Positions 4,563 through 54,800 of a DNA stretch of 64,000 bases are shown here, in pieces. Under the pieces are notes generated by a model. It searched no databases. It was not told where the DNA came from and saw nothing but the letters and a program-made list of their open reading frames with translations. This stretch comes from a virus, in the IMG/VR virus record IMGVR_UViG_3300021368_000003, positions 31,400-95,399 of that record; one strand, 5' to 3'. Each line of letters begins with the position of its first letter. The stretch's first letter is position 1. The position numbers were made by a program, and so were the translations under genes.

Positions 4563-4683
4563 ATCCGTTACCTTTATAGTCTTCTGATTCGTAGTAGTTA
4601 TTCTCACCCTTTCGTATCCCGAAATAGATCGTGGATAGTACAAAGGGTATTGCTGCCCAAAGTAAGACATTACCGAACGTCAT
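4552..4683 (-). CDS. ndhP: NdhP-like small subunit of the photosynthetic NDH-1L complex (43 aa, not in ORF track)
   Basis: MTFGNVLLWAAIPFVLSTIYFGIRKGENNYYESEDYKGNGCAH: one TM helix plus FG..YY-x4-Y-x-GNG-x-AH, like the cyanobacterial NdhP C-terminus (FFGTRNGFYDTDQYHGNGSAH). ATGA overlap with the PTOX stop. Confidence 0.85.
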   Translation of the reverse strand: MTFGNVLLWAAIPFVLSTIYFGIRKGENNYYESEDYKGNGCAH

Positions 4684-5183
4684 AATAGTTCCATCGCAGA
4701 TCTAAGTTCCTCAACGTGATGAATTTCATCTTCCATAATTTCATAGATCCTTTTGTCAGATCTATCAATGTACATTAAATAATCGCTGTACGTTTGTGCA
4801 GCGTGTTCTTCTACTTCCAGACTTAGATGGTAAGCAGACATAGGAAATAACCAGTAATAAACCACGTTAATCCAATAGTAGATAAGTACGAGGTGTCTGG
4901 CGAAAGCGCGATCAATCCAATAAGCATTACCGCCCCTGCTCTCCATATATTCAAGATGTTCTGTTTCATTTACAGACTGCTCGAAGTGTTGACGCATTAA
5001 AAAATGATGCTCAGGTCCACGTAAACCCATAGATTCACGTAGATGTAACACACTTAAAAAAGCAAAATAGGGTGCCCGAGCAATCTCTTCAAGCACCCAG
5101 AAACGTTGATAGTGACGACCTCTATAAAGAAAGTCAATGATTGCTACTGTGATATCTAACGTTATCGTATTTAATTTTTTCAT
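4680..5183 (-). CDS. ptox: plastoquinol terminal oxidase (AOX family)
   Basis: RFWVLEEIARAPYFAFLSVLH, NETEH, EVEEHA and DEIHH di-iron motifs; start MKKLN at 5183 overlaps the petE stop. Confidence 0.96.
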   Translation of the reverse strand: MKKLNTITLDITVAIIDFLYRGRHYQRFWVLEEIARAPYFAFLSVLHLRESMGLRGPEHHFLMRQHFEQSVNETEHLEYMESRGGNAYWIDRAFARHLVLIYYWINVVYYWLFPMSAYHLSLEVEEHAAQTYSDYLMYIDRSDKRIYEIMEDEIHHVEELRSAMELL

Positions 5184-5503
5184 TCTACATGTACTGTACC
5201 GATCATGCCTGCTCCTTTGTGAGGACCACACCAATAAGTATAGTCGCCTGCCTCAGGGAATGCAACGTCGAACTCTTCACCAGGCATCATAGCGAGTGCC
5301 TCGTGACTTAGTTCTGGATGATCTTCCACAACAACGTTGTGGGGTGGTAGCATGTTGTTGATGAAGTGAACTGATTCTCCTGCGCTGATTGTAACTTCTG
5401 CTGGTTCAAATACTAGATTACCGCCTGAACCCATCTGGACATCTACTGCCCATGCTGGCATAGCAAAAAATAGTGCAGCAAATAAGGAAAGAATAAACTT
5501 CAT
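5180..5503 (-). CDS. petE: plastocyanin precursor
   Basis: Signal peptide ending AWA; PHNVV and YWCGPHKGAGM type-1 Cu ligands. Confidence 0.98.
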   Translation of the reverse strand: MKFILSLFAALFFAMPAWAVDVQMGSGGNLVFEPAEVTISAGESVHFINNMLPPHNVVVEDHPELSHEALAMMPGEEFDVAFPEAGDYTYWCGPHKGAGMIGTVHVE

Positions 5504-5524
5504 AAAACCTTACTGTAACTGCAC

Positions 5525-5531
5525 TATTTAG
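5525..5531 (-). promoter_or_regulatory. T4-type late promoter (CTAAATA) upstream of petE
   Basis: TAAATA core in the intergenic gap ~22 nt before the petE ATG. Confidence 0.65.
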
Positions 5532-5549
5532 ATGTATATGATCGGTATA

Positions 5550-5843
5550 TTAACCTAATCGGTCCTGAATCTCTGACATTGCATCCTTCTTTCCTTTGAT
5601 CATTCCATCGATATAACCACTTCTATATTCCCATGTTTGACCACCAACCTGACCCTTCTTTGGGTTGATACATTGATCATTTCCTAGGTTGTTGCAAACC
5701 AAACCTGCAAGGTCTAGTTCTGAATCTTTGTTAGTGTTGCCTGTACCTCGCCAGACATGTTGTCCATTGATCCACGTTGCTCCACACTTCTCACACTCTA
5801 CGCGAGAGAGTGACAGATCAGACGCTTCTTTTTCGTTACTCAT
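5550..5843 (-). CDS. hypothetical protein with four Cys (CxxC...Cx7C)
   Basis: CEKCGATWING...VCNNLGNDQC; possible metal-binding protein. Confidence 0.8.
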   Translation of the reverse strand: MSNEKEASDLSLSRVECEKCGATWINGQHVWRGTGNTNKDSELDLAGLVCNNLGNDQCINPKKGQVGGQTWEYRSGYIDGMIKGKKDAMSEIQDRLG

Positions 5844-6060
5844 TGTTTCTAAATCCCCAGTGATGTTTCCATGGTGGTGTGAGTGGGAGACCCAGTTCCT
5901 TTTCCATTCTGAGTCTCATAGGATAGACCCTAGCACAAATGATGAAGTGTCGCAACTTTAAGTCCAGAAAATAAAACAGTCGCATTGTGGATTCTATACC
6001 AGCATATGCGACCATTAAACAGACTATTGCAACGACAAAATAAAAACCTAGCAGTTCCAT
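5836..6060 (-). CDS. small N-terminally hydrophobic hypothetical protein
   Basis: TM LLGFYFVVAIVCLMVAYAGI; short overlaps with both neighbours. Confidence 0.7.
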   Translation of the reverse strand: MELLGFYFVVAIVCLMVAYAGIESTMRLFYFLDLKLRHFIICARVYPMRLRMEKELGLPLTPPWKHHWGFRNNE

Positions 6061-6452
6061 GCGCGTAAAGATTTCGAGAGACGATCATCCCCAGTATTGT
6101 TGGATGGTTTCTGTCTCTTCCTCATACCTTTCATACGAGCACAGAAAGAACGACGACGAGGATTACCAACCTTTTTACTAGGTGCTTTCAGATCAGACCC
6201 TGGGTTCTCTTTTTCGTAGGACTTACGTCCTTTCTCATTGAGACCACCCTCTTTGTTCTGACCTTCTTTCTTAGTCCAAGCAGCACCTTCCGTACGCATT
6301 GTCATATCAGTAGGCTTCTTCTTCGATACTGCTTTCATTTGCAGTTGAAGTTTCTGCCTATTGATCATCAGTTGCTTACGCTGAATCTGTTGTTGGCGAT
6401 TCTCCATAGATTTATCGCCTGCTTCGGAAATGTACTCCTTGAAAGTAATCAT
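6048..6452 (-). CDS. basic phage protein (DUF6321-like C-terminal domain)
   Basis: GGLNEKGRKSYE..PGSDLKAP..RRSFCARMKGM..SLRAWNC motif common in phages; family name recalled, not searched. Confidence 0.8.
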   Translation of the reverse strand: MITFKEYISEAGDKSMENRQQQIQRKQLMINRQKLQLQMKAVSKKKPTDMTMRTEGAAWTKKEGQNKEGGLNEKGRKSYEKENPGSDLKAPSKKVGNPRRRSFCARMKGMRKRQKPSNNTGDDRLSKSLRAWNC

Positions 6453-33878: not shown

Positions 33879-33885
33879 TATTTAT
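33879..33885 (-). promoter_or_regulatory. T4-type late promoter ATAAATA
   Basis: Contains the TAA stop of gp7. Confidence 0.65.
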
Positions 33886-36800
33886 TGGAAGATCTGAGTA
33901 GGTGTAAATCCACTGATAATAGTGGCACCTGTCTGAACTGTGAGGATCACGGAGTTGGAGTAAGTAGGTTGAGCACCAGCAGCAGTGATTGCTACACGGA
34001 ACTCATCACCATCATCTGCCTGTACAGCAGCGTTAGAACTGTAAATCGCATTTGTCTGACCCGTGATGTTGACCCAGTTAGTTTCACCATACTGCTTGCG
34101 CTGCCACTGATAGTTCAGTGCAGTGGTTCCGACAGATCCGTCAGCACTCACGATGAACGAAGCGTCAACGGTGAAGGATGCAGTCTGACCTTGGTTCACG
34201 GTCACGTTAGTGGGTTGTGCGTTGATCAGGATGTAACCAGGTACGATCACGATTGGGTTGCCGTCAGCGTCAGTACCTTCACCCGCGTAGGTGTCGAAAC
34301 CACCGTTAACATTACCGCCCTCAGGTGCTACAAAGTCATCAGGGACAGTTGTCTCAACTTCAACCACAGGTGCTTCATAACCAATACCAGGGTTCTTAAC
34401 CACGATGGAAGAGATACCCATCAGAGCACGGATACGACCGTCGAAACCAGTGGAGGAAACCACGTCAACGTTCGGGCGTGAGGTGTAACCGTTACCAGGT
34501 GCAGTGATCTGTGCCTTAGTAATTTCACCAGATCTGATGGTAGCAAGAGCAGCAGCGTTGCGACCCTTAACAGTTCCTGTGTACTCGAAGGTAATCAAGG
34601 AGTTGGAAGACTCGATCAGAGCGACCTCACGAGGATCACCTTCACCTTCGATTTGCAGAATGTCACCAGCCTCAATCGGAGGTACGACAGTTGCCGCGAT
34701 CACGTCAGCGTCAGAACCAATGTAGGAGAAGGCAACAAATGTAGATCCTGCGCGAGGAATCTCAGCGAAGATAATTCTAGAACCAACCAGGTTATAACCA
34801 ACACCAGGTTCCTGAATCACACCATTGAGCGAGACGATGATGTTGTTCTCAGGCAAGATAGTGTTGGACGACACACCTTCCGTCAGAGTCAAGGAGTAGA
34901 AACCACCCTGATACTTCAAGTTGAAGGACGAGCGCAAGGAGTCAAACTCGAAACTGATGTCATCAAGTTGTCTCAGTTTACCCACGTAGTAACCAATGAA
35001 TTCAGATCCGATCGTGGGAGGTTCAGTGAACTGAATCTGGTCGGAGAACGCAGTGTAGGCGTAAGTTGCACCAGGAGGTTGCAGCACACCATTGACGAAC
35101 ACGAGCAGGTGTCCAGCGGGATCTGGGAAGTATGCTTCACCGTTGTTGACGGTGAGTTTGAAGGAAGTTGCAGTGCCATCAAATCCTCGGAAGAATCTAT
35201 CGCAACGACCCAGAAGCGACTTCGCTTGCGTTACACCTGCTTGCCAATCGTAGTCAGAGATGATCGACAAGTTGCTGGGCCAATCGCCCACAGCATCTTC
35301 CAACCAGATGCGACCAGTGGTGCCGCTGATTGCCTTACCTGCGACCTTACCGTAAGAGGTGTAAGAGGTCTCGGTGACGGAAGAGATGTCTGCACGGAAG
35401 ATTGGGAAGTTGCTAAGGTTCTCAAACTTACCGATAGAACCATTTGCTGCCAGTTGAGGATCGACAGTCGTGGTTCCATCTGCTGCCTGTCCATACGGAC
35501 GCAGGTTCGCGAGCCATACGTTGTGAATGCTGTTATCAGGATCGTAGTTATACTCAGTGACGATAGCAGTCCAACCAGGTTGTGCGGGGATGGTGCCTTG
35601 GAGCAGGTAAACCAGGTCGCCTTTGTTGAAGTCTCCCAGGAATCCTTGGTCTCTTGTGACATTTGTGATCTGACACTGGATTGTCTTAGTCGCATGTACG
35701 AACTGATTAAGTTCGATATTTCTAAATCCAGCAGTGGTGATGTCAGCGATGTCAAGAATAACGTCGGTGACAGAACCGTAGATAATATCGCCATCCACGA
35801 AGTTATCTTGCAGGGACTCAATGTCAATCGTGATACGACCGCCCGTGTTACCCACGAGAGCACCAGCAGAGTTCTCATAGAGTTTGATGTCTGCCTCAGC
35901 ACCATTGCCCTTGTTGAAGATCATCTCACCTTCTGCGAATGCACCGCGATCAATGTTGATCAACATGCGCTCAGTCAGATCACCTTGGACAGTTGCAGTG
36001 ACAGCAGAGTCTACACCCACGAGGTCATCGCCAGCGTTAATTATGCCAGTGATATTCTCGATGTAGCAATTACCTTCGTCAGTGTTATCACCCGAGAGGA
36101 CAGAGGTCTGAACAATGAAACCGTAGTTAGAAGGATTGCCATCAACGTTGACTCTCTCGCCATTTGTGAAGCGACCAGAGGCAGATACGAGATTCGCCTT
36201 CTTGTACAGTTTGATGATCTCTGCTTCATTATTTCTAGTTCTGATAACGTCACCACGGCAGTTGGAGCTAGTACCAACAACCACGTCAGCGAGGTTGAAA
36301 CCACCACTGATAGGCGTATCAATGTCACGAGTACCATATGTGGTGGTCTCACGATAGATACCAGAGCGTACGTCAATTTGGAATCTCTGCTGACCACCAG
36401 TTGAGAGGTCAACATCAAAGTCGCTGTAACGTGCGTCGTGACGAATCTCGCGTGCAATCTCGAAGAATTGAGGAGTTGCGTTCAACACATAGAACCAAGA
36501 CTGACCTTGGAGTCCACGCTCGATGTCAGCCGAAGCGGGTACATAGGTGAGAACATCACCACGAGAGTAGAAGTTCGGGCGAGTAATCTTGACTCTGTTC
36601 TCTCTTCTCTCGAAACCAACTTCCACAGTAGGAGTGTTAAGAACCAGTTCAGGATCAGTGTTCCAGTCATTACCCTCGTCGTAGAGGTTTTGCAGGTTCT
36701 GAGCATGAGTCGAGTTGACCCAGATCAGGTTGTTGTTGGTAGGAGGTGTGGAGCGCGTAAGAGCGAAATTGATCGGATTAGTAGAAGCGTCAATTCTAAA

Positions 36801-39800
36801 CTCAGTAGACTCTTGCTCATACTCGAAGCGATACTCAATAGCATCCATCAGAGTATCATCCAGATAACGGAAGTATTCGTTATTTGTACCCCACTCAGCA
36901 GTGTTGTTCTGATCGTAGAGAATACGCTTAGATGCCTCAGAGATGCGTAGCAGATAGAAGATCAAGTGTTGTCTTACAACACCATCATATGCGATGAAGT
37001 TACCTTCGCCATCGAACCAGGAGTTCGCCAGTTTCATGGAACCAGCGTTACCACCAGTGTTGAGGTCATAGATGATTGCATCCATCACCACCTGAGCGAA
37101 GGACTCAGGAGCAGCGGTGCCAGGATACTGTGTAGTCACTTCTGCGAAGGACTTAGCAACGATAGCGTGCTTGTTGAACACCAAGCGACGTGCAGTTGCA
37201 CGATCAGAGAAGGATCCACCACCAAGGGTTTCACTCATCAGATCGAACAGAGTATCAGCAGCAGAGATTACGTTGTAGCAGGTGTACAACTGATAGGTAG
37301 TATTGCTGTTGTAAGGCGTAGTTCTAGTAACAGTGCTGAGGTGAGTCGGCGTAGGTGATCCAGATGCTGCCTTAGCGACAGTATCGATCACGAGGTCAAA
37401 CAGAGTCTCGATAGCAGATGCAGTCTGCTCACAAGTGCTGTTCCAACCACCAGTTGCACCCTCGTCATAGGTAACAGACACGTCACGGTGAACCATGTCG
37501 TTGCTGTACTTGATTGGCCAGATGTTCGGCAGAGACTTGGTGATAGTTCCGTCAGTGATGCTTGCAGGAGTTGCAAGTGTATCATTGACGATATCCATCA
37601 GAGTTCTCATGGTGGATCTTACGTCAGCACATACACCGAAGGTTCCATCGGGAGCACCATCAGCAGTGATGCTGTACTGAGGATCGCTGTATGGGAAGTA
37701 ATCAAGATCACCGTAGAACTTCTGATTGTAAGAATGACCACCTTGCTTAGTGATTGTGTCATTCTGCATCACATCAACAGCAAGATCGAATGCCTTGTTG
37801 AGGATCCAAGTGGTCTCAGTTACCTGCGAGGAAACGTGAGCCACAGCAGCAGACTGAACATAGAGTTCAGCGGCGTGGAAGACTTTGTTGTTACCACCGT
37901 ATTTCAGGTTGAATACCAATGCACTCAGAATGTCAGTAACGTCATGAACACAATCGATGCTACCAGCAGTAGTAACAGCGTTGTCTTCTGCACGTACGAA
38001 CGTATGTGCGTATTGCTCACCAGCAGGAGAAGCACCAACGTTAACCGTGATCGTGGTAGCAGTTACGCCAGTGATTGCGATAGAATCCTCGTAATAAGGA
38101 TCAGTGGTGCGAGGATAGGCGTGCTCAGTAGCATTTCCATCCTTAGTGCAGGTGAACACCAAAGAATGAGGTTGGATGTAGATCTGGTTGCCAGCAACCA
38201 AGGAGTGAGATCCAATGGTCAGTTCCAACACACCCGAAGCAGGAGTATAGGTAGCAGCAGTAGGAGTGAAGTTCACACCACCAGTAGTACCACCGTTGAT
38301 GTTCAGTGAAGGATATTGCTGTTGACCCAGGTAAACTGCTTCCTCAGCAATGAATCGGATGTTTCTATCAATGATGTTAGCAGCATCGATATAGCGGTCG
38401 CGTACAGCATTCTGTTCGTAAGAGCTGGTTTCCACTTCGTCGAAGGATTCACCACCCAGGTCGCCACCACCAGCAGCGCCGTCACCTTCACCAATTTCGT
38501 TGTAAATGTAGATGTTGTCACGTCCGAATCCATTTCTCATGGTCAGGATGCACATTTCCTGTGCAAACTTCATAACCCATTGTGATGCCTCTTCTTCACC
38601 TTCGACGTGGAGGAGAGTATTGTCTTCTGCATTCAGATAGAGTGCAGCAGCATCCCAGGTCTTAGAGTTACCACCCAGACGCATGTCGTGAACGATTGAT
38701 TCGATAATATCAACCACATCATCAACACAGTTCTGACGACCGCCAGGAACCTTGAAGTTGATGAACTTGGACATGTCGTTCATGGTATGAACTGCTTCCC
38801 AAGCGATCACATACTTGTTACGCTCGATCATGTCGGCAGCATCCATGAGGCGATCATGGTTAGGACCAGTACGAGTCTGATCAGGTGCCTGAGGATCAAT
38901 AGTGATCGTGGTGTCACGATACACCTCACGGGTAGTCCAGATTGCAACGTAGTAATCGTCTTGATATCTACCATCAATACCCAAACCAGCAGCAGTAGTA
39001 CCCTGTGTCAACAGAGTATTGTTGATTGCGTGCTTAACGAGTTTTTTGGTGTACTCAAAGGCGTCCAGCATGGCGCTGAGTTCACCTTCAACATGAAGGA
39101 TCTGGTTATCTTGGTTGATATATTGATCCAGGACATATTGGGTAGAAGAGTTACCACCAGTCAGCAGGTCAGTGATGACAGCAGGCAAGATGAACTTCTT
39201 GATGTCTCTGAGACAATATGGTTCGCCATAACCAGGCATCTGCAAGAAGTCAAAAGTACGGATTTCTCCGAGAGGTCCTTGAATTTCAGCAGCATACTTG
39301 TCTTGGATGTATCCGACAACTTCCTCAGCAATGTAATCGCGGTTTTTCCAGATAGCATCACCACCATCACGGAATCTATCGCCAGTTGGGCAAAGGATGT
39401 CAATGATAGTATCGGCAAGAGAACTAATCTCGTTAGTTACCTGGGAAGATGCAGGAGAAGCGAAGTTGTTGGGGATACGAAGGATGTCAGTGTACTTGGC
39501 AGGAACAGTGTCACCATTCTCATCGACCATGGTTCCATAGTTGACCAGATCACCGCTAGTGGTAGTGATTACATAGTTCATAACATCTGCCAGTTCATTC
39601 CATGCGTAGATGGATTGCAGCAGTTCGTTACCAACGTAGTTCAGACCACCAGACTTGGTGAGATATCCTCTACCAGAGATCACGCTGTTGTAGTTACCAC
39701 CGTAACGGATGTCAGCGATGATTGCTTTCAGGATGTACTCTTTGGTATCGCGAATACACTTGTTAGTGCCCTGCTCACTGGTCTCAGTATCACCAGGGAT

Positions 39801-42800
39801 GATGAAGTCAGGATACTTCGCTGCCATCTTACCGACAGCAGTTTCTGAGATCCAATCGAGGTTGAGTTCAAGCATGTCGGCACACTTTCTGTGCTCGTCA
39901 CGCGAGAGGTCAATGTCCTCAATGATAATTTCTTTGGTGTCGTAGTTGACTTTCTTAGCAGTTGCAGCAGAGTTAGTCTGACCAGTATATACAGCAAATG
40001 ATTCCTCAGTGCTGCAAATGATGTCCTGCTCCATATCCATACCGAACAGAACGTTAGCAGTGTTCGTAGGATAAGTTGTACCAGGAGTAAAGGTTCCAGA
40101 ATACAGGGACTCGTTATGAATAATGAAGTTGTCAACATGACCTTGGAAGGTGTTGGTGCCATCCCAACCAGCCATCATTCTGAATGGACGCTCTACATAA
40201 GTGTTGGTGTCAGAGTAATCACCACCAGTTTGTGTACCGTTAACAAATATCTTGGTGATGCCAGTTGTTCTGGTAATTGCAACGTGAGACCATTGATCTT
40301 GTGCCATGTTGTGAGCACCAGAGATATGATCAGTTCCGTTGAGCCAATACTTAATGGAGTTGTTCTCCAAGTAAATCACAGGAGATTGAGTCAGAGTGGC
40401 ACTTTGAGTTCTACTATCGAAGAGATACTTGATACCAGACTGAGGGTTAGTAGAAGGACGCAACCACATTTCAATGGTGAAGTCACCAGTACCAAACTTA
40501 GTCACATTAGACAGTTCATGAGACAGTCCAGTATGAGTCTGGAAGTTCAGTGACTGAGTACCTGCTTTCTTCTGCAACTTAGTCAGAGTGATCGTACCAT
40601 TAGCAGTCAACTTAGAGTTGGTAATGATCTCTCTATCAGTGAAGGTGCCAGTAACAGCGTTAGTGAACAACCACTTCAAACCAGAGTTAGTTCCCTTCGC
40701 CTCAAAGGATGCACCAGAGGACGTGCCTCTAATGGTATCGCCAGGAATGAAGAATCCGTTACCACCACGATCTTTGTAAGCAAGCTTGAATACACGGAGG
40801 TTCTCGTTCTCGTTGTATGTACCATCAGTGATAGGACTGAGGGAGTTGATGCTGTTGAGGTTACCAGCGCCGATTGCAGTTGCTGCAATCTCAACCAGAG
40901 TATGAATACCTGCCTGTACATCAGCACAGTTCTGGATACTTTCGTTGCTACCAGAGGAGTAGTTAGGATCGTAGTATGCTGCCTCAGTACCACCACCAAC
41001 GAAGATGGCGTTATCAACTGCATCGATAAAGGTGTGAGTATAACCACCACCAGTCGATACAGCGTTTGCATTAGCAGATACGAAGGTGTGAGGATACTGC
41101 TGACCAGTTGGAGAAGCACCAACGTTAACAGTAATCGTAGTTGCCGTTACGGCGTTGATAGCAAGAGTTGCACCAGCAGCAGGGTCAGATGCACGAGGAT
41201 ATGTGTGGTTAGAACCATTGTTATCCTGAGTACAAGTGAAGGTCAGTGAATCAGTAGCAATTCTGATGTCATCACCAATTTCCAGCGTGTGGGAACCAAT
41301 GGTAAGTTCCATGGAACCAGTTGCAGGATTGTAGTTCGCACCAGTAGGAGTGAACTGAACCAAAGGAGATGCACCGACGTTAACGTCAATGGTGGTGCTA
41401 GTTACACCAGTGATTTGCAGAGGTGTGTTGAATGCAGGATCACCAGCACGAGGATACTCATGGAACGTAGCACCACCATCCATGGTGCAGGTGAAGTTCA
41501 TCGAGTAAGGTCTGATCGTTACAGAATCAGAAGTCGAGAGACTGTGAGTACCGATACCGATTGTCATCACACCCGTTGATGGGGTGTAAGTGGCAGCCGT
41601 AGGAGTGAACTGTTGCAGAGTTGTGCCAGCAGCACCCAGGTAAGGACCTTGATAAGTCGAAGGATCCTTCAACATGTATCCCAGTTCTGGGGTTCTGGTG
41701 TTGACCTGTACGTAGAGGAGGTTGTTGATAGCACGACGTGCCATCTCGCCTGCCTTTCTAAATGCAGTCAGGGACTCAGCAAGTTCTCCAACCAAACCAT
41801 TGCTGATAGGTGAACCGTTAGTGAAATACTTTCTAGCAAACTCAACAATGTTGTAGTTACCATCATCACTGATGTCATCAGACAGAGCATCGACCATCAG
41901 ACCGATGTCACGACGACACTTAACTTCGTTAGCAGTGTATTGAGTCGGAACTACCTCATCGAGGATGTCAGCAAGGGAACCAGCAAGCAGGATGACAGAG
42001 ATGTTATCGCAGAGAGTTTGCAGCGCAGATTGTACGTCAGCGCAGTTATTAACTCCATAGTTAATGTCATTAGAACCAGCAGTGCCGTAGTTATTACCAG
42101 GAGAAGGATCAGCAGTGATACCAGTTCCAGTAGAACCACCAGCGGTTCTCTCGTTGTAGAAGATGTAAGTAACACCATCGACAACCTCAGATCCATTCAG
42201 GTCATTTCTGAGTGCCTGACGCATCAGTTCAGTTGCCTTATCAAATGCAAACTCAGTAGCAGCTGCTTCGTTGTTTACATACAGGAATTGTGTACCATCA
42301 GTGCTGAAATACTTCTGTGCAAGTTTTCTGGTATATACTGTACCGCCACTATAAACGTCGAATGACAGAGCATCAATGTAGTAACCAATGTCGCGCTTGC
42401 ACTTGTCAGCAGAAGGAACATTCAGAGAAGGATACTCAGCAGTCATCAGAGCATAAGCCTTCGCCTGGATATAATGCTTATTCTTCTGAATCAGACGATA
42501 TGCATCAGCATATCTGGACCAGGCGTCGGTCGCGTTGTCGCCAGGATAATAGAACCCAGGATGCTCAACAGCAATCTCAGCATTAGCAAAGTCAACGATC
42601 TCATCCTTGTTCAGGGCGATCATACGACCAGCGTCTTTCCATCTGTTCTTAGAGTCGGTAACAGTGTTGCCATACTCGAAGGTGATAGAGCGCAGTTCAT
42701 CACCAGCAGCGAGAGTACCACCAGTTAGGTTCTCGTACTCAATCTCAGTAGATCTAACTTCTTCAAAGTCAAGGAAGTCAGCGTTAATTCTCTGATCAGC

Positions 42801-45800
42801 ATCATCAATCAGAGTAGGAGTAATTGTAGTCTTGGAGATATCATCTACAATGACGTTAGCATTAGTAAGAGAGATGAGACGCTCAAATACCAGACCGAAG
42901 AAGGTTGAACCTTTGTTGATGATCAACTGATCAACAACATCACCCAGTCTAACTTCACCAGCAACAACCTCAGTCATGTTGTCGAGGATTCTATCACCAG
43001 TGGTAGAATCAACGGTATATTTTTGGATAGTATCACCATCTTGGAAATCTGCCACAGATCCCTTCAAGTAATACAGGATCGGAGGAGATGCCTCTTGATC
43101 AATTCTTACAACTTCACCACTTGCAGTTCCACCAGGTCCTTGGATCTTGTCACCCTCAGAGAAGGAACTCCAACCCGATTCACCGCCAACAGGACGTACC
43201 AAGTTGATGTTAACAATAGGATCTCTATAAGGAGAAGTGCTTGTAATTCTTGCAGCAATGTTGGAACTTGCAGAATAGATGATATCTTGTAGACCGATAG
43301 CATAGATACCAGTCTCATATTCAGAAGTACCAGAAGTCTTAGAAAGAACCAGTTTGTCATCGATGTTTCCATCCAAATCTTGGTTGGTTTCTTCAATGAT
43401 CGCTTGATCACCATCAAGATTAGTAACAGTCTCACCAAACTCAAAGATGGTCTTATAGTTGACACTATCAACATTCAGAATGTCACCACCATATTGGAGA
43501 CCGAAGAATGTGACTGATTCACCTCTTTCAAAGTAACCATTTGCCATGTCAGTGACATCAATGGTGTAATCAGTTGGGTTGACAGTAAACACAGTTGCAG
43601 TTGCACCACTGGTCTGACCAGTAACTCTTACACCACCAAGTGCGTTCTGAGTAAATGTGCCACCAACGTTTTCAAGGTATAGCTTTGTTACAGAATCGTC
43701 GATACTTCCGATCAGTGCGCTGAATCCAGTTCTACCAACGTCAATACGCTCGTTAAGATCAAAAGGTCCACCTTGGATATCTACAACGTCAATGCTAGTA
43801 GCACCAGTTGCAACAACCTTTGCTCTTGCCTCAGATGTGAAACCATTAACAGTATCACCCAGTTCAGGGAAGATACCACCGATAGTATTCAAGTTGAGTC
43901 GAGTGATCGGCATGATGTCGAACTCAACGTTTCTGTAAACAACCTTAGAGTCGGGCTTAGGAGGTTCAGCAAAGACGATGTTGTTACCAACGATTTGGAA
44001 GGATTCGCCAGGTGCTTGGATCACACCATTCAAGGTGACAACCAACTGGTTATCCTTAACGATGAGGTTCTCACCTTCAACTCGAAGTGGGAATTGCTTA
44101 GTAGAACCGTCGAACTGACCAGAGATATCGTCAATCTTCTTAACGATAGAAGTCAGAATTTCCTCAGAGTTAGTCAGTCTCTTCTTACGGAAGAGAACTT
44201 CGGAGTTATTGAAGGTTGAGTAGATCGGTTGAGCAGCACCGAAGGAAGTAATCTGGTTAACGTTGGTGTACTCGTTGATGTTCACCTGCTTAGTGAAACC
44301 AGCAACAACCTTACGTCCAGAGATATCCTTACCACCAGTCAGTTCGAGCTGACCGAACATGTTGAAACCAACAGGGTGGTTGTTTTCAAGAATCTGAGAC
44401 TTCCACTTATTGATAGGAATCTGAGACTTAATAACGTAGGAGAAGTTCTGATAGAAGAAGGAGTCTTGAATCTTCTGAACAATCTCGGAAGGTTTACCGA
44501 TGTCATCGATGAATCTACCAGGAGTCTTGGTCAGAGCATCAATGTTCAGCACACCCTTAGCAATGTTGATGTTATCGATCAGACCAGATGCGCGAGAGAT
44601 AACACCCTGCACCTTACCACCAACAACAAAATCACCACGGGGGTTAGTAACTTTAAGAATCTTAGGTTGAATCTGCCAACCTTCGTTTTCTGATACAACA
44701 CCGAAAGCACTAGCAAGTTCGTAAGACTCACCTTGGAAGAGTTCTTCACCTTCCAGGAAGCGAGAGGTCTCAACCACTGCTTCTGCTTGACCACCAAACA
44801 CCTCGGTGAGTAGCACCTGACGACCATCACCCTGAGTCAAGAAGGTAATAAAGTTACCAGACTCAGCGTCAACTCTGGTCAGTGCAAAGCGAAGTTGGTC
44901 TGCTTCCAGACCATTTACATTACCAGCAATAGCATAGTAAGTCTGAGTAGCAGACAAACTGGTCAAACCAACGCTGCTGGGCTTGGGCAGTATACCAACT
45001 TCACTACCGATATCATCAGCACGGAACTGAACCTCAGCACCAGTGGTAATACCATGAGGGAAGTTGAACTGCAAATAGTTCAAGTCAAGGTTCACAACAT
45101 AGGTGAACTCAGATTTCAGAGTGACAACTGGTTGTGAAGAGTAACCAGCACCAGGATTCTTGATCAGAATCTCAGACAGTCTGTTGTTCTTAACAACTGC
45201 TTCTGCCTCAGCACCAGATCCACCACCACCAGAAATGATGACAGAAGGAGCAGAGGTATATCCAGCACCAGGATTAGTGATCTTGATCTGGGAGAGAATA
45301 GAGGTGTTAAAGAGTTGCAGGTTGATCGGGAATGCAATCTCAGGACGCAGGGTGTAGTCATGGGAGTAACCATAACCAAACTCGTTGTTTTTCAGCGTCT
45401 TGATCTTACCAATCTGTCTACCAGTGAGGAACACAGCAGCACCGCTACCCTCAGCAGGGATAACCACTTCTAGTTCTGCACCAGAACCAGACAATGTGGG
45501 TCCAAGAATACCTTCAATACCATCAACGTCGATACTTGCAGTGGTGTAACCCTTACCAGGATCAGTCAGAGCAACATCAGTAATGGTGCCAGATCCGATC
45601 TCGTCATCAACCTCAACGGTGATTTGCACAAGACCACCTTCACCATCACCCAGGATAGGAACCTGAGTATAGACACCAGATGCATATTCAGTACCACCGT
45701 TGCTGATTCTGACTTTTTCGATCTTACGATCAGATGCAATGTCAGATACAACAGGGAGTTTCTTATAGAATCCACCAGGAGAGATCAGTTTAATCGTGTT

Positions 45801-48800
45801 GATAGGACCGATTGCTTTGACCGAAGTGGTGGAGTAGGAAGAGTTGGGACGATCAAACTCATCTTCACCAATTTCTGCATTGGTAAATTCAGGTTCATGA
45901 AGGAGTTTGAATCTAAACTCAGTATCAGAAATAACTTCGCTGATAGTAAACCTACCATCAAACGGAGTCTTGATCACATCAATAAAGGAGTTGTTACCAA
46001 CAGGAGAGTTGGCACCCAGTCTTGATGGGTCAAAGTAATAAGTGATATTAGTAACCTCACCACCAATGGTGAACTTGACCACAGGTGTCTCAGTTGCAGA
46101 GGACAAACCAGGAGTACCTTCACGTTCAATAACGTTGAAGGAGTATTCCAACTTATACTGGTTGTCCTGAGAGAATGACAGATAATAACCGAAGTTAGAA
46201 GGATCACTCATATCAAAGATATAAGAGTGATTTCTAGTCAGCATCAGAGTTGGGTGCTTAGATGCAATCTTGACACCAGTTACACCAGTTGCAAATCCAG
46301 GATCAGCAGTTGCAGTAGCACGCAGTCTGTAAGTAAAGTCTCTGGAAGAGAATACTTCTTGGACAAAGAACGAACCATTAAACTCACCAGTGTCGAATCC
46401 TTGTACAAACAGGATGTCACCAGCAGTATAGTTATGAGGAGTTACAGCAGTTGCATAGATTAGGTCAGATCTACCTTCACTGGTTCTTATAATGTCCTTA
46501 TCAAGAGTAACAGTCAGTTTGATAGTCTTGACAGTAGTAACACCATTGATATCTGCAATCTTGGCATTATCTTCATTAGGACCAGCAGTAATGCTGCCAC
46601 CCAGAGATACTACGTCTCCGATGATGAAGTCAGAGTCAGAATAGGTATCGATAATAGTTACTCTATACTCTTCTGCTCTGAAAGGTCTGAACCTTGCATA
46701 GTCAGAGAGTGGATCATATGTACTAACGTAGGACCAGGTGACGTTTCCATCAGTGACAGTTCCAGAAGTATGTACAGGAGCAGTGCCACCACTGATACCA
46801 TCAGAAGTTGCTTGATACTTATATCTGCCATAGTATACAAAGTCATTGGTGGAATAGGATCTATTGGTTTCCCACTCATCTACCAAAGGTTGAGGCCAAG
46901 CATAATCCAAGAGATTTACTTGGATGGTTCCAGCAGCACTAATGTAGTTCCAAGTTACAGCACCATCAGTTACAATACCGATCTCATGAGTTGGTGCAGT
47001 AGCACCAGAAGTAGCAGTATTAGTAGCAGCGTAGATCTTACCGTCGCTGTATACCTGATCATTGACGTTATATGCCTTACCTGACACCCATTCGTCCTGA
47101 GGACGAGAAACAGTAAAGTCAATCTCTTCAATCAGGTTTTCTTGACCAGTAGAGTTTCTGAATCTATCAGTATTGTTAAAGTTACCAAAGATCTTACCAA
47201 TCTTATACTCAGTACCATAACCTGGGTTGTTGATAGGACCAACAGGAGTCTCTACAATCGTACCAAACGCTTGGGTGACACCCTGAGCGTTAAATTGCTG
47301 AATAACAGTACCCTTATCAAACTTAACGTCTTGGTTGAAGGTAAACTTCTTAACGTTATCCATCTTAGAGTATGCTGCATCTCTAAGGTAGTATTTTGCA
47401 ATTACATTAGGAGAAATAAGCAGTCTCTTTCCGAGAGGTGAGGGTACAGTAGAAGTCTTAGAAGTGTAAGTCGTAATAGACTCACCGAAAGTGTATGTAC
47501 CGTAATTGAGAGTAGAGGTTACATCAGAGTAATCAAGAATTTGCAGACCAGAAGAACCTTCGTTCCAAACTGTGATAACAGGATTGTTCAGGGTATTAAC
47601 ATTGAGGTTAGTTGCCTCACTGAATACAATACCTTGATTATTAGCAATCTGATAATCACCACGCTTGCTATGGAGACGATCAAACTTGATCATATCCATA
47701 CCAGAGTTCTCAGTATCAATTCTGTAACGCTCAGTGGGAACAGTCAGAGAGGAACCAGTATATACAGCACGCGGTTCTACGATGATGTCATCAACCCAAC
47801 CAATAAAGGAGGTGTTGGTGGCACCAGAAGTAGCATTAGAAAGAACTGCAAGGTCATCCATTGCAACATCTTCTGTTCTGGTGGCAGTACAAACTTGTAC
47901 ACCATCGAAGTATGCAGAATATACAAAGGAACCAAGAGTAGGTTCTTCCTTGACCAGAACAATGTGATGCCATCCCTCAGATGACATTGTGGTGAAGTAG
48001 GTAGAACCCACAGATACCACGGTAGCACCACCACCACCCTGAGGAGTGATATCGAGGATGACTTTACCGAAGTTAGGGTCACCAACAGTACCATTGATAG
48101 AGTAGATAACCTTATCGCCATTATCGGCAATACAGGTGATCATTTCCATCTTAGGATTATTGCTAGCATGGCTGCCAATCATCTTGACCCACATGCCGAC
48201 AGTCCAGTCGTCATTGTTATCAAAGTCAGTCCAATCCAAACGACCTGCTGCTTGCAGTTTTAGTGAAGCAGAACCAAACTTATAGATGGTATCATCTCTG
48301 AGGATGTTAGCACCACCAGTTACAGTGACAGCACTCTTCTTCTGCTTGGTAGCATCGAAGTAAGTATCAGCACTATCGTTGAAACGATATACAGCAGTAG
48401 GAACAGATCTTTGAACGTTGACTGGAACAATAATGTCACCAGAGTTATCAACAGTGTGATTGAAAGCAGTAAATCCGAGACCGTAATCAGTGTCACTATT
48501 AACAGAATCCCAAGCACCACGAATGATGTTGGACTTGTAAAGTAGAGTTCCATTGTACTTAAAGTTGGAAGCAACTACTTGTTGATCATTATCTTCGTAC
48601 TTGATATGGGTAAGAACATTGACATTACCGAATTCATCAAGACTGATACCAGCATGATTGATAGATTCAAATGTAACACTAGGAGCAATAATCTTAGAGA
48701 AGTACCACTCAGGAGCACTGAGAGTAAGTCTGATTTGATCCATCGCAATCTTGAAGAATGCAACACCATAGTGCTTGGTGCCATTCCACATATCACATAC

Positions 48801-51800
48801 AAAGAACAAATCGTTGTAGGAATCCAGAACAAACTGAGGTCTTTGTACCTGACCACCAGAGACTGCCAACTTCTTGACATAACTCATTTCGATGTTGGCA
48901 CCGTCATAAACCATCTCACCAAACATGAGATCGTTATTGTCTAAATCAATACCAGCAAAGACGATTTTATTGTTACCAATGTAATACAACTGGTGCATTT
49001 GCTCACCTTCGCTGTCAGAAGCGAACTTACGCTTCTCTACAACGTCACCTTGGTTATTGAGCTGCATAACCCAGATATCATCAGGATCTGGGGAGTTGGT
49101 GTCCGTCCAACCACAAATATAAAGTCTCTGCTCGTCATCGAGGTAAATATCACCTGCATAGTCGCGACGAGTCGCACCAGAGACACCAGCAATCTCTTTC
49201 TGGAATCTGATGATACCTTCGGGATTATTTGCGTTATCAAGACCAGATTCGTACTTAACAAGCAGGATATCGGGATTATATCCAGCAGTGCTCTGAGATT
49301 CGGTTTCACCGAGCACATAGATCAAATGATTGTCCTCAGAAGTCTCGTCGAGGTAAATCTTCTTAAAACGTGCTTTTTTGATGCTAGAAGACGGCAGAAT
49401 ACTTCTATCCCAAATAAGTCCACCCAGATCGGAGAATTTAGCGAGGAAAGCAGAAGTATCGCCATTTGTTTGAGTCAGTTCGCCACAAACGTAAGTAGTA
49501 CGGTCGGAAGCGGTCTGAATGTCGAAAATTTCAAATGTAGAGGCATTAGCACCACTTTCGACATATTGGTTGACCCAATAGTAAGTTTTCTTAAATTGTT
49601 GAGGGTGAGAGACTCTGATTTGAGGAACATCCTCAATATCGTAGTCAAAACCAGAATTGATGATATCAACACGGTCAATCTTACCAGTGGTGGTATCCAG
49701 GATAATATCAAGTTCAACGTCCTGTCCAGAGTCAGTAATGATCTCATAAGTGGGAGGAATTGCCTCATTGTAACCAACACCGATCTGATCAACACTAATT
49801 GACTCAATACCAGTCACAACGGACATGTAGAATCGCTTATTAGTGTTATCAGTGATAACTTTCGACGAAACAATAATTTCGTCTTGTGCAATCAGTTCGT
49901 GATCGTTAGCAGTGGTAATTTTACCGTATGGTTCATCATCAATGATCTCTTTACGATATCCAGAGATACTTTGACCAGTAACAGACTCAATTTGAGCAGA
50001 AGCACCAAATCCATCAGTTCCAGTGTTATCAAAGAACAAAGTATCGTTAACCTGGTAAGAAACACCAGGGTTCTCGATAACGAATCCGTCAATTTGTGCA
50101 GACTCGAATTTAGTAGTATTTTCGACCTCAATATCCACTCTGGACTCGGTAGAGACCGTTGGGAAGTAATCATAGATCTGCAATGCCGCTTCTTCGGTCA
50201 TTGCTTGCAGAGTTGCAATTTCAACGGGACTGATGATGCCATCACCGTCCATATCTTCAATTTCAAAGATAATTACGTCACCTTCACGCTCAGTAACGAG
50301 TTCATCAGATCTTTGGTTAGGTTGACGATCAATATCGATGTCAACATTAGCATAGGGGTCTCTGAAACGAGAAACATCAAGAGGAATGTTTTCTTGGGTT
50401 GCAGATTGACTCAGGTTCCAAGTATCAACAACAGAGTTGAACTGAGGACCAACAATATAAGGGAATACAGGAAGACCAGCGTCAGATTCGTCAATAGTTA
50501 CAAAATAAGCGTAAGTACCAGCAGGATAGTCAGGAGTCTTACAGAAACGACCGTTATAGGGGTCTAGGTCGCCTCTCTGGAAGTCATATTCGTAATCATT
50601 GATGAAAGTACCAGCAGGATAGGTTGCAAGCAGCGGACCATCCGTTCTGGCAGGAGTTGGGTTGGTATCAATGTTATATACAACCTCATCCTTCAATTTG
50701 TAAGAAGAACGCATTCTTCTAAGACCACTGTTCTGATCAGTCGGGTCAATATAACCGTAAGGACCGTAAATCGGGTTACCATCAAACGCCCAACCAATAA
50801 TTGGAGAGTGTGCTTCGTTCTGACCAATCTCACGGAAGTTCTGAGTCTGAGGGTCAAGAACTACGTTGTCACCAACCACATAACGGAGTTCTTTCGGGTC
50901 AGAGACGTGTGCATATTCACCACCATACTGGTTATTGAAACCAGTGAATACATAACCACGAGCAATGTCATATTTGGAGTTAAGTTCATATTCAAGGTTT
51001 TTATTCCACTTGAATACAGTTGCTTCAAAGGTTGCAAGTTGACCAACTGCCTCTAAACGTACAGTTGTTTGACCTTGTGTATATCCAACACCTTTGTTAG
51101 TGATTTGGACAGAAATAACCTTACCTTTGTCCTCACCAAGGGTTCCAATGACAGCAGTTGCCTGAGCACCGAATCCATCACCGTTAATGTATACGGTAGG
51201 AGCAGTGGTATAGTTTTCACCAGAGTTAATGATAGCGATCGACACAATACGACCGTTAATCACAATAGGTTGTGCCAGAGCACCTTCACCAGAGTTCAGT
51301 TTGATCTCGGGAGTAGAAGTATATCCAGATCCAGCAGAAGTCAGTGAAACGCCAGAAATAGGACCACGAACTTGTGCAGTAGCAAGAGCACCAGCACCGC
51401 CACCACCAGTAATAGAGATAGTGGGTTGAGAAGTATAACCAGTACCAGCATTCTCTACCAGAATACGAGTTACACGACCATTAGTCACAACTGCCTGAGC
51501 AGTTGCACCAGAACCACCGCCACCAACGATAGAGATCAGAGGTTGAGCAGTATACCCAGAACCCTGATTGGTAACATCGATAGAGAACAGTGAACCATTA
51601 ACAGTAACGCTAGCAGCAGCACCAGTACCACCGCCACCAGAAATTTGAAGTGCAGGCTTGTTACCAGCATCATAATCGATACCATTGTTGGTAATAGTGA
51701 TTGCAGTCAAAGGACCAAAGGTCACATAGTCCTTAGACTTGTAAGACCAAGCAGCAACACCGTTTACCCAAGAACCAACGGGGTTATTAGGTTGAATAGT

Positions 51801-54800
51801 AGTTCTAGTAGAAACCGTAGATACAGTTCTAGGGAATCTAAGCAGTTTACGCTGGTTACCAGGAATTAGAGCAGAACCTTGGAAAGGACCGATCTTATAG
51901 TTGGGCAGACCAGATGCAGCAACGTAAACGTAGTTATTATTGAAGAAAGTATTCTGAATGTTTGAAGTGAACAGAGATACTACTTCGTTAATAGAGTTAA
52001 TAGTAGACTTACCTCTATTCAAGTCAACAGACAAGAGAATGTTACCCTGAGGAGTGATCTGAGTTGGTACAGGGATAGCATAAGTGAAAGTAAAGTCGTC
52101 AAGACGAGAAGTTACTTCATAAGTTCCGTTATAGACAGCAGGGTTTGCACCATAAATGGTAACCTTGTCTTCTACAAGCAATCCGTGCGGGTTATCACAA
52201 ACGACGGTAGCAGTTTGGTTATTCGATCCCCCAGGAGTAATGCTTGTAACCTTGATGAGTTTCTTAACGTTATACAACCAGGATTGAAGGCGTTCATCAG
52301 TGTCAGTGCCACCCAAAGCAGCCACATTAAGCTTATCGCCTGGTAGATAGTAAGAACCAGTGTCTTCAAGAACGGTAGTACCTGCTTCTGCAATACCGAG
52401 AACACGAAGTTTGACTTCATTGCTCTGTCCTTTGTTAACCCAGACAAAAATATCCGATTGAATCGTCGTACCAGGGTCCCAGTCCTCAACTACACCGTTT
52501 TTAGAACGAGTACACTCGATAAACTGGTTCAGTGACTTTTCTTTGTACTGAACAACCTCTGAATCATCAATAATGATCGTACCGTTCTTCTCTGGCCACC
52601 CAATAGTTGAGTCAACGGTAATTATGTTACCATCAGTGGACAAAGGTTCAACAAGAGTCGTTTTATAAGGAATCTTGAAGGTTCCACTCAGAGTTTCCTC
52701 TGAAATTGCCAATTCGTAAATTACGTCAGTACCCTCAATGATCGAAATCACGTTTTCGATCAAAACAGAGGCATCTTTGATATTTTGGTCAACAGGATCC
52801 TCAATTTGGATCAACTGTGCGTTCGGTAGATCAGCAGGGTCACCAGAAATCAGTTGAGCACGAAGAATCGTGTCAACAACCCAGGATGCTGCCGAAGGAG
52901 TGACCAGTTCGTCTCTTGGATAGTAAACATCAACTTCCTCACCGAACAAAATCTTGAATAGGTACTGTGCAGCAGTTTTCGTACCCTTCGAGATGTAGAA
53001 ATCCTTGATCGTCTTGATAACTTGCACAGGATTGACCCGTGCATAGTCAATGTTGATCGTAGGCATGTATTGATCACGGAATTTATCAAATACACGTCTA
53101 ATAATCTGAGCGTCCAGGTTATGAACAACAGATCCAACAGTATGATTGGTTTGTGCAAGTTGATCTTCCTTAGCGTAGACCTGATTGCCAAAATTATCAA
53201 ATTGGACAACATCAGATACACCACGAGCACAACCACGCAGTGAAGAAGGTTCATAATTTTCACCAGAAGACCTAATAAGGCAACCAGTTACCTCACCAAA
53301 TCCAACATCACATGATGCTTGTGCAGCAAGTGGTTCAGCGATGTAAACCTTAGGAGGATTCTCAGTAGAATACCCTTCACCGAAGTTGGTGATGTTAATA
53401 TCAGTAATTTCACCGTTAAAGATGGTTGCTGCTGCCATTGCACCAGTACCACCAATAGATTCACCCAGAGGACCCTTACGATCGTCTACAATGTATACAG
53501 AAGGAGCATCGGTATAACCAGAACCACCTGTCAGCAGGTTGATATTGGTAACACTACCGTTTGCAACAGTAACATCAAGAACCTGAGCACCAACGGGTTG
53601 TACAACTCTTGCTCTTGGTGCTGTCTGGTAACCACGACCTCTATTAGTGATAGTTACAGACACAACTTGTCCGTCAGGAGACACAGAGCAAGTTGCTTCG
53701 GCGTCAATACCGTCTTCGGGAGCAGGATCAATGTAGATAGTAGGAGGATTACTATAACCAAGACCAAACTTAGTTACAGTGATAGATCCATCAACCAGAC
53801 GACCCTCAGAATCGATTGTAGGGTCAGTACACTCAGCACCACCAGGGTTGATAAAGGTAATTGCAGGAATAAAGTCGTAACCAGAACCAGAGTTGGTGAT
53901 CTCGATACCAGAGACTTGTCCTGTTGTATCATCAACAGTAATTTCAGCAGCAGCACGAGAACCATTGATCAGATCGCTAGGTTCAGTGATACGAACAACA
54001 GGAGGGTTGTATGAAGTGTAACCCTGACCACCATTGATCAGTTTAACGTTCTTAATACCGTTGACCAGAGACCTTGCAGCAGCACCAGTTCCCTTTCCAG
54101 TAGAAGAGAAGATGGATACCTTGGGTGCAAAGTTCAGTCTATAACCACTACCACCATTCTTGATAGTAATTGCGGCAATTTCACCATTAGAACCAACACG
54201 GGTCACTGCCTCAGCGCCAGTTCCAACCGAAGGAGACACATATTCGATCGAACGGATATGGAATGTGTCTTGTCCAGAGATGTTAACAAAGAACTTGATT
54301 CTAGTGTTGTTATCAGTCAACACATAATCATCGAATGGGCGTTGCAGCACACCATTACGGTTGATAATCAGACCAATCTCAGCAATCGGAGCATAGGGGA
54401 GATTATCATATTGAACCACCATCGAATCTCCACCAATGAGACTCTCGACAGGAGGGTAAACCAGTTCTTTAATTACAGAATCAGCAAAACCGATGTAGTA
54501 AAGAATCTGAGTCAGTTCTACTTGATCATTACCAGTTCTAGCACGGGGTGCAGTGGTAAATACAATCTGAGAACCAGTAATAGTGTAATCAACACCAGGG
54601 ATCAACAGATCACCATATACAGTAACTGCAAGGTGTGCTGCTGAGACAGGTGAGACAGGGGTGCCTAGGAATTTGAGATCGAAGGTAGTTCTAGTACCAT
54701 CAAACTCAGTCCAAGGAGATTCTAGTGCTTGTCTCTTCTTATTAAATTCTTGTAGAGAGATACCTGGGGTCAGGATTACGTCAGGACCACGAACAGTCTG

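Follow-up and report, generated by a model that had tools for sequence, protein, structure and literature searches.

Recursively nested phycobiliprotein-like domains in a giant baseplate protein of a cyanomyovirus probably form a module-displaying stalk

The DNA analysed in this study, hereafter referred to as the window, comprises 64,000 nucleotides (positions 31,400 to 95,399) of the virus record IMGVR_UViG_3300021368_000003 in IMG/VR, a contig of 95 kb that is estimated to cover about 53% of a genome. It constitutes the structural module of a T4-like marine cyanomyovirus, with all genes of the module on the minus strand, and within this module a giant open reading frame (ORF, Table 1) is preceded by a gp6-like gene (phrog_219) and followed by other baseplate wedge genes. 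Isolate relatives of the giant ORF carry the annotation 'baseplate wedge initiator' or 'virion structural protein', and the family PF23786 matches residues 698-740 of the encoded protein weakly, with 22.5 bits under a cut-off of 27. A homologue from the phage S-SZBM1 (6619 residues, about 52% identity across the region described below) was found with 71 peptides in the virion proteome of that phage (PMC9146016). Our analysis concerns residues ~4150-6105 of the giant protein, which comprise seven units with the fold of phycobiliproteins (PBPs), here termed A, B, 4, 5, 6, 7 and 8. We consider it highly probable that these PBP-beta-like domains are recursively nested and that they would form a stalk displaying further modules. 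A nested, Russian-doll-like arrangement with a second Cys at a position resembling beta-155 of phycocyanin had been proposed in the original prediction, which was made from the letters of the DNA and their translation.

Each domain consists of three pieces, an opening helix pair (helices A-B), a core that extends from helix E with its C-x-R-D motif to helix G, and a closing helix H. Alignments were built from homologous stretches of IMG/VR loci and two stretches were folded with AlphaFold, residues 5060-6100 with a predicted local distance difference test (pLDDT) score of 74.7 and a predicted template modelling (pTM) score of 0.64, and residues 4150-4790 with values of 72.5 and 0.71, respectively. 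Both pTM values are high for an arrangement of beads on a string. In structural alignments with VIA, unit 4 superimposes on PBP beta subunits with a Z-score of 17 and a root mean square deviation (rmsd) of 2.3 Å over 145 residues, and unit B (model residues 46-230) on the beta chains of phycoerythrin and phycocyanin with Z-scores of 15.6-16.8. The top structural rows are all PBPs, with globins and RsbR-type domains trailing at Z-scores of 8-11. Global matches of the whole models in Foldseek were meaningless, except for PBP rows at a probability of 1.0 for the second model. At the level of sequence, the Pfam model PF00502 (Phycobilisome protein) scores 46 bits for residues 4100-6100, at a gathering cut-off of 22.2; unit 4 and the combined units A and B reach 22.2-23.2 bits and unit B alone 15.6 bits, and searches with units 5-8 singly returned no match to this model. 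Profiles of units 4 and B retrieve 30 and 34 matches from the PDB, which are all phycobiliproteins (E ~0.02), and in the HMMER alignments to these proteins the Cys of the unit falls on Cys84 of the motif K-C-x-R-D. The sequence identity to PBPs is 13-21%. The fold superpositions, the exclusive retrieval of PBPs from the PDB and the coincidence with Cys84 thus identify the units as true distant relatives of phycobiliproteins, structurally closest to their beta subunits. They are not stand-alone subunits of the kind that pairs in alpha-beta monomers and assembles into phycobilisome rings, but sit within one virion protein of 7079 residues.

For a map of the region, profile hidden Markov models were used to assign tokens, with O denoting the opening helix pair, E the core segment that starts with the C-x-R-D helix and ends with helix G, H the closing helix, and B a beta module. 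The resulting order of pieces is O1 O2 E2 H2 E3 B B H3 in a first cluster, followed in a second by O4 E4 H4 O5 E5 O6 E6 O7 B E7 H7 H6 H5 O8 E8 (Table 1). The helices of O1 span residues 9-37 of the model, with pLDDT values of 76-90, and the closing helix of unit 8 was placed around a D-T-L-M-D motif solely by visual inspection. In the translation of the ORF, all motifs and coordinates of the original prediction are correct. The opening of domain A, RWKDAGRMIALNK, is found at residue 4160 (42606-42644), two of the closing Cys are C4360 and C4732, and the three Cys codons at 37629-31 (C5831), 37431-33 (C5897) and 37278-80 (C5948) are likewise located where it had placed them. The Cys of the cores are C4241 (K-C-K-R-D), C4402 (K-C-R-R-D), C5303 (C-L-R-D), C5465 (C-V-D-D) and C5724 (C-V-H-D). 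Two elements had been overlooked, the seventh unit (residues 5971 to ~6105), which is devoid of Cys, and in unit 4 a closing helix that lacks the Cys (residues 5225-5243).

Table 1. Location of the giant ORF and of the pieces of its PBP-like region in the window
Feature	Coordinates	Strand	Residues and basis of assignment
Giant ORF, gp7-like 'baseplate wedge initiator'	33882..55121	minus	7079 aa
O1, opening pair (helices A-B) of outer unit A	42552..42656	minus	4156-4190; unit-4 profile positions 4-46
Unit B, complete PBP-fold domain in putative B-E loop of unit A	41967..42539	minus	4195-4385, C4241 (K-C-K-R-D), closing Cys C4360; VIA, PF00502, PDB profile
Unit A resumed, helices E-G	41712..41936	minus	4396-4470, C4402 (K-C-R-R-D); unit-4 profile positions 51-119, token E3
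Two beta-barrel modules in G-H loop of unit A	41082..41615	minus	4503-4680
H3, closing helix of unit A	40851..40934	minus	4730-4757, C4732; token H3
Laminin_G_3 lectin-like domain between two unit clusters	40104..40514	minus	4870-5006; PF13385, E 2e-15
Unit 4, contiguous complete PBP-fold domain	39387..39938	minus	5062-5245, C5122 (K-C-I-R-D); VIA, PF00502
Unit 5, opening and helices E-G, without nearby closing helix	39006..39383	minus	5247-5372, C5303 (C-L-R-D)
Unit 6, opening and helices E-G, in putative G-H loop of unit 5	38532..38870	minus	5418-5530, C5465 (C-V-D-D)
Unit 7, opening helix pair	38304..38411	minus	5571-5606; profile and token
Beta-barrel module in B-E loop of unit 7	37965..38291	minus	5611-5719
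Unit 7, helices E-G	37752..37964	minus	5720-5790, C5724 (C-V-H-D); profile and token
H7, closing helix of unit 7	37566..37637	minus	V-C-A-D-V, C5831; token
H6, closing helix of unit 6	37362..37439	minus	T-C-E-Q, C5897; ends superposed range 352-857
H5, closing helix assigned to unit 5	37212..37286	minus	T-C-Y-N-V, C5948; by elimination and grammar
Unit 8, seventh unit, contiguous	36807..37211	minus	5971 to ~6105; tokens O8, E8; model helices 912-1010

The interruption of one domain by another is reflected in the matches of the unit-4 profile, which are split in two places. In unit A, profile positions 4-46 align to residues 4157-4199 and positions 51-119 to residues 4398-4466, the two stretches being separated by the entire unit B, and a second colinear match is distributed over residues 5573-5614 and 5708-5794 of unit 7, which flank a beta module. 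In the secondary structure of the model, helix H is missing from units 5 and 6, where helices A, B, E, F and G are present, and two surplus helices of the closing type are found past the closing helix of unit 7 itself. In a search of all PDB representatives with the whole model, the beta chain of phycoerythrin (5aqd_M) matches best, and its residues 2-184 superimpose on model residues 352-857 (residues 5411-5916 of the protein) with a Z-score of 16.2 and an rmsd of 2.5 Å over 156 residues, while about 370 inserted residues are skipped. The superposed range starts at the opening of unit 6, bypasses unit 7 together with its beta module and H7, and stops in the T-C-E-Q helix, and eleven further chains of the globin fold align from model residues 352-372 to 857-873. 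In the model it is thus the middle of the three consecutive closing helices, H6, which completes the C-V-D-D unit 6, as direct evidence of nesting at the level of a predicted structure, and the pairing of these two elements in the original prediction is borne out by the superposition on a whole 5aqd_M chain. The same superposition is difficult to reconcile with the alternative that the region would consist of simple tandem or truncated helical repeats, with the three consecutive closing helices forming a bundle of their own.

Homologues of the protein illustrate where the insertions are accommodated. Each beta-barrel module contains about 85 residues and is similar to barrel domains from phage endosialidases and to the FCCH domain ('first catalytic cysteine half-domain') of E1, with VIA Z-scores of ~8, the module in the B-E loop of unit 7 scoring 7.7-7.8. 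In the homologues L070 and L028, helix G of unit A is joined directly to H3 and the two beta modules are cleanly absent. The module at residues 5611-5719 is missing in 11 of the 29 aligned sequences and tripled in L046, L048 and L049, and about 140-190 residues are inserted immediately upstream of H7 in 16 sequences. The beta modules thus behave as cassettes that are gained or lost exactly within the B-E and G-H loops, and it follows from this gain and loss that both loops are insertion sites for modules and entire domains alike. As a separate observation, each module (41082-41615 and 37965-38291, minus strand) contains a single Cys and a His, both conserved, in a pattern of the form F-T-C ... 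H-x-Y-P-R-x-x-D-P, which could constitute a metal or redox site.

If domains are nested, the order of their pieces should obey the rules of a stack, in which O opens a unit, E requires an open O and H closes the last open E. The protein of the window parses to a depth of three with zero violations, and the same holds for P-TIM40 and for P-RSM6, where inserted modules of more than 1000 residues precede H7, H6 and H5, which are still stacked. The protein of S-RIM14 also parses as nested brackets, and a protein of S-RSM4 annotated as 'short tail fiber' contains seven closed units at a depth of six. A search of 1.84 billion representatives with the unit-4 profile identified 598 clusters at E <= 0.001, many of which represent giant proteins that are matched in up to 31 stretches. 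In 29 representative proteins in which all three tokens are well detected, we count 10 violations in 501 tokens, compared to a mean of 182 and a minimum of 141 in 2000 shuffles, and the order of tokens is thus beyond chance. These statistics are based on fully tokenised proteins, the core token alone being detected in about 120 of 149 annotated hits. Nests of both types are present, those where a run of openings precedes pairs of E and H, and those where pairs of O and E precede a run of closings, as in P0068, which is nested five deep. The most elaborate order was found in P0033, which is most closely related to proteins of the tail and tail fibres in Synechococcus myoviruses. It contains ten openings, seven EH pairs, two openings and five EH pairs, all of which are closed, at a depth of ten. 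Since its linkers span only ~8-10 residues between openings and ~20 residues from a closing helix to the next core, they are compatible with last-in-first-out pairing only. Wherever all pieces are detected, the counts of openings, cores and closings agree (12/12/12 in P0033 and 7/7/7 in S-RSM4), and in the fibre proteins closings alternate with cores, neither of which would be expected if the repeats were truncated and the closing helices formed a separate bundle.

Several observations weigh against the nested arrangement or limit its scope. The confidence of the models is middling (pLDDT 72-75) and the underlying alignments of 26-29 sequences are shallow. No VIA row placed a PBP or globin on unit A with its distant parts (model residues 9-603) or on unit 5 with H5 (186-907), although VIA shows one best alignment per chain and such missing rows amount to absence of evidence only. 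Some cryptophyte PBP rows reach model residue 24, which places part of O1, in the model, near unit B, where the N-terminal helices of a PBP would be. The shuffled control has no power to distinguish nested from plain tandem strings, and plain tandem units do occur in the relatives Syn33, S-RIM2, S-RIM8 and S-P4. The contacts that would join unit A to H3 and unit 5 to H5, as well as the shape of a rod, are extrapolated from the remaining data, and it is solely the variability of the inserts that suggests a function in display. The absent rows and the tandem relatives are what would be expected from an architecture without nesting, which we nevertheless consider highly implausible in light of the completion of unit 6 by H6 and the balanced counts of pieces. 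Directly supported are the fold, the split homology, the completion of unit 6 by H6 in the model, the cassette-like inserts and the grammar of the family. The proposal that each closing helix packs on a distant opening can thus be seen in the model for H6 and unit 6, whereas a pairing of unit A with H3 is suggested by split profile matches and grammar, H7 would belong to unit 7 by adjacency and H5 to unit 5 by elimination and grammar.

Together, the split profile matches, the gain and loss of cassettes, the bracket grammar and the one direct superposition support the nested architecture and the out-and-back course of the chain that had been envisaged in the original prediction. In the proposed mechanism, whole domains and beta-barrel modules would be inserted recursively at the B-E and G-H loops, with unit B residing within unit A, and unit 7 within unit 6, which itself would be contained in unit 5. 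The chain would run outward via the N-terminal parts of successive domains and return via their closing helices in the order last in, first out, so that both ends of each cluster would meet at one base. With the pairing found in P0033, it would climb along A-B hairpins and descend through E-H segments to form a rod of domains. The helical domains thus most likely make up a rigid stalk, whose shape we infer, that extends from the baseplate, and the stalk would display exchangeable beta-barrel and lectin-like modules, which probably bind the host surface. A structural stalk with variable modules is the best-supported functional reading.

Cysteines are rare in the giant protein (36 of 7079 residues), and 19 of them are found in the PBP-like region. 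On helix E, the Cys aligns to Cys82/84 of PBPs, together with Arg86 and Asp87; the complete motif C-x-R-D is present in four units and C-V-D-D or C-V-H-D in two, which leaves Cys and Asp in six. The residues 5122, 5303 and 5465 are invariant and 5724 is found in 28 of the 29 aligned sequences. The second Cys is part of the closing-helix motif x-C-x-[DN]-V-x-S-A-I-x-T-L, as defined in an alignment of closing helices, and it immediately precedes helix H in the models (model residue 211 in unit B and 838 in H6). At 19 residues past this Cys (model residues 230 and 857), the structural alignments reach their end at the C-terminus of the PBP chain, and by arithmetic from these ends, which presumes that the last 19 residues are free of gaps, it maps to position 153 in the 172-residue beta chain of phycocyanin, 158 in the 177-residue cryptophyte beta chain and 165 in the 184-residue beta chain of C-phycoerythrin. 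We take Cys158 to be the corresponding bilin site in the beta chains of cryptophyte proteins and R-phycoerythrin. The proposed resemblance to beta-155 is thus supported by the alignment ends. When the PDB was searched with a 34-column profile built from 55 closing helices, no phycobiliprotein was retrieved, and the likeness therefore resides in structure and not in the sequence of the helix. A closing Cys at the second bilin position is present in five of the seven units. The residues 5897, 5948, 4360 and 4732 are invariant or nearly so, whereas C5831 of H7 is found in only 13 of 29 aligned sequences and unit 4 never contains a closing Cys, with Ser5225 occupying its position in hhalign. Among 43 parsed units in 11 phage proteins, about 38 contain both Cys and nearly all the one on helix E. 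Unit 8 (36807-37211, minus strand) has lost both Cys and the Arg of C-x-R-D but kept the Asp and the G-G-N motif, and would offer a natural Cys-free control for the other units.

With respect to their role, the original prediction had offered a second chromophore site or a disulfide partner, and both remain candidates. As disulfides, the Cys could staple the extracellular stalk, either within a unit or between neighbouring units, which might appear plausible for a virion protein exposed to oxidising seawater, where Cys are otherwise scarce and most units contain exactly two conserved ones. However, the Cys on helix E of unit 4 is kept in all aligned sequences without any closing Cys, and C5724 of unit 7 persists while the Cys of H7 is lost in 16 of 29 sequences, the two being thus uncoupled, which argues against an obligatory disulfide pair within one unit, as read from conservation. 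In addition, sites 84 and 155 of PBPs are tens of angstroms apart, and the pattern of units lacking Cys matches neither scheme of pairing between neighbours. We thus regard disulfide staples as quite unlikely.

Alternatively, the Cys could be bilin sites. During infection, host lyases of the S/U and T types, or phage CpeT using phage-made phycoerythrobilin or phycocyanobilin, could load the stalk with chromophores, and the stalk could then act as light sensor, for example in light-dependent adsorption. Such a role would add to the nested architecture rather than replace it. It would account for the (near-)invariance of the helix E Cys in the 29 aligned sequences and the combination of Cys and Asp in six units, and for the location of the closing Cys, which in three numbering systems coincides with a site of T-type lyases, enzymes that act at Cys153 in the beta chain of phycocyanin and at Cys165 in that of C-phycoerythrin (PMC8983314). 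The genes ho, pcyA, pebS and cpeT are confined to myocyanophages (PMC10452541), the function of the phage cpeT and bilin genes is still open in the literature (PMC3037559), and the light-dependent adsorption of cyanomyoviruses is unexplained and independent of host photosynthesis (PMC6628666). A Pfam model detects CpeT-family genes in all five complete phages examined, but a tblastn search with CpeT of S-RSM4 returned only 66 phage records, and the co-occurrence of CpeT does therefore not discriminate between readings. Other findings count against bilins. The reading derives from sequence and structural position at a low identity to PBPs, two units deviate from the canonical C-x-R-D motif, the closing Cys is missing in unit 4 and both Cys are missing in unit 8, and more than half of the aligned sequences (16 of 29) have lost the Cys of H7. 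Moreover, the insertion points adjoin the beta-155 site and we know of no report of coloured virions. No cpeT was found on the 95-kb contig of the window, which covers only about half of a genome, and a quarter of cyanomyoviruses lack cpeT (PMC3037559). We thus view bilin attachment as a tentative proposal that is unlikely to be correct. Similarly doubtful is its extension to the family, by which the baseplate and tail-fibre stalks of cyanomyoviruses would bear bilins at both beta-type Cys, making the virion a photoreceptor and explaining cpeT, pebS, pcyA and ho1 along with light-dependent adsorption.

The relationship to known systems underlines the unusual use of the fold. With PBP beta subunits (PF00502; C-phycoerythrin, 5aqd_M; C-phycocyanin, 6hrn_B; cryptophyte PE555, 4lmx_B), the units have in common the helical globin-like fold (Z-scores of 15.6-17), the Cys in C-x-R-D on helix E, the G-G-N/T motif past this helix and the second Cys directly before helix H (Cys153/158/165). 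In contrast to these subunits of 160-185 residues, the units are embedded in a giant virion protein and split by whole inserted domains, one of them lacks both Cys, and their likeness to PBPs is read from sequence and models. A PBP fold within a large multidomain protein is also found in the bilin-binding domain of ApcE (4xxi_A, Z-scores of 13.2-14.5), which contains a loop insertion between helices B and E, at the same site as used in the units, but in ApcE, a phycobilisome component that binds bilin autocatalytically, the insertion is a single loop devoid of whole nested domains. Like the gene of T4 gp7, the giant gene is located directly after a gp6 homologue; its relatives are annotated as baseplate wedge initiator, and the match to PF23786 is weak. 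The protein has seven times the length of T4 gp7 (~1030 residues) and its PBP-like array has no T4 counterpart. As in other discontinuous domains that originate from insertions, the parent domain would be completed by the chain segments flanking the insert. 'Russian doll' insertions in SCOP and CATH are rare and shallow, whereas in this case the same fold appears to be inserted into itself repeatedly at two fixed loops, with a hairpin-of-domains rod as the predicted outcome. No paper on PBP-like domains in cyanophage structural proteins was found in the library that was searched, and no survey of nested domain insertions was retrieved in a literature search.

The results thus point to a light-harvesting protein fold that has been reused as building block of a virus particle, and to the self-insertion of one fold to a depth of three in this protein and of ten in its relative P0033. 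To our knowledge, no other protein family exhibits self-insertion of one fold to such depth. The proposed design of the stalk is simple, as its two ends would stay at the base while the loops would bear swappable binding modules. Since most units keep the Cys of both pigment sites, one of which is the site served by a lyase family that these phages encode, the purpose of the phage bilin and cpeT genes and the light sensor of light-dependent adsorption become directly testable questions. If the units were to bind bilins, the virion itself would be a photoreceptor, and a pigment-bearing virion is an idea amenable to experiment.

Further observations concern the surroundings of the described units. 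In S-RSM4, a cpeT gene (L120:3221-3745) is located about 1 kb upstream of the gene of the 4482-residue 'short tail fiber' (L120:4699-18147) with its seven PBP-like units, six deep, and a tRNA cluster and a gene of an HNH endonuclease lie between both. Three metagenomic proteins (P0003, P0006 and P0007, 4799-6382 residues) contain about 30-35 core pieces with C-x-R-D and consist nearly entirely of PBP-like units; almost no openings or closings were detectable in them with the present profiles, and they represent a divergent class. Elsewhere in the giant protein (window positions 47922-55121 and 42522-48221, minus strand), a YHYH domain is found at residues 1397-1544 (E 4e-29) and a weak match to CBM_5_12 at about residues 2677-2707, and a G-G-S-G-Y motif recurs in numerous short repeats. 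Long plus-strand ORFs within the giant gene (34653-36404, 37488-38309, 38787-39848 and others) are most likely shadows of the coding strand and not genes.

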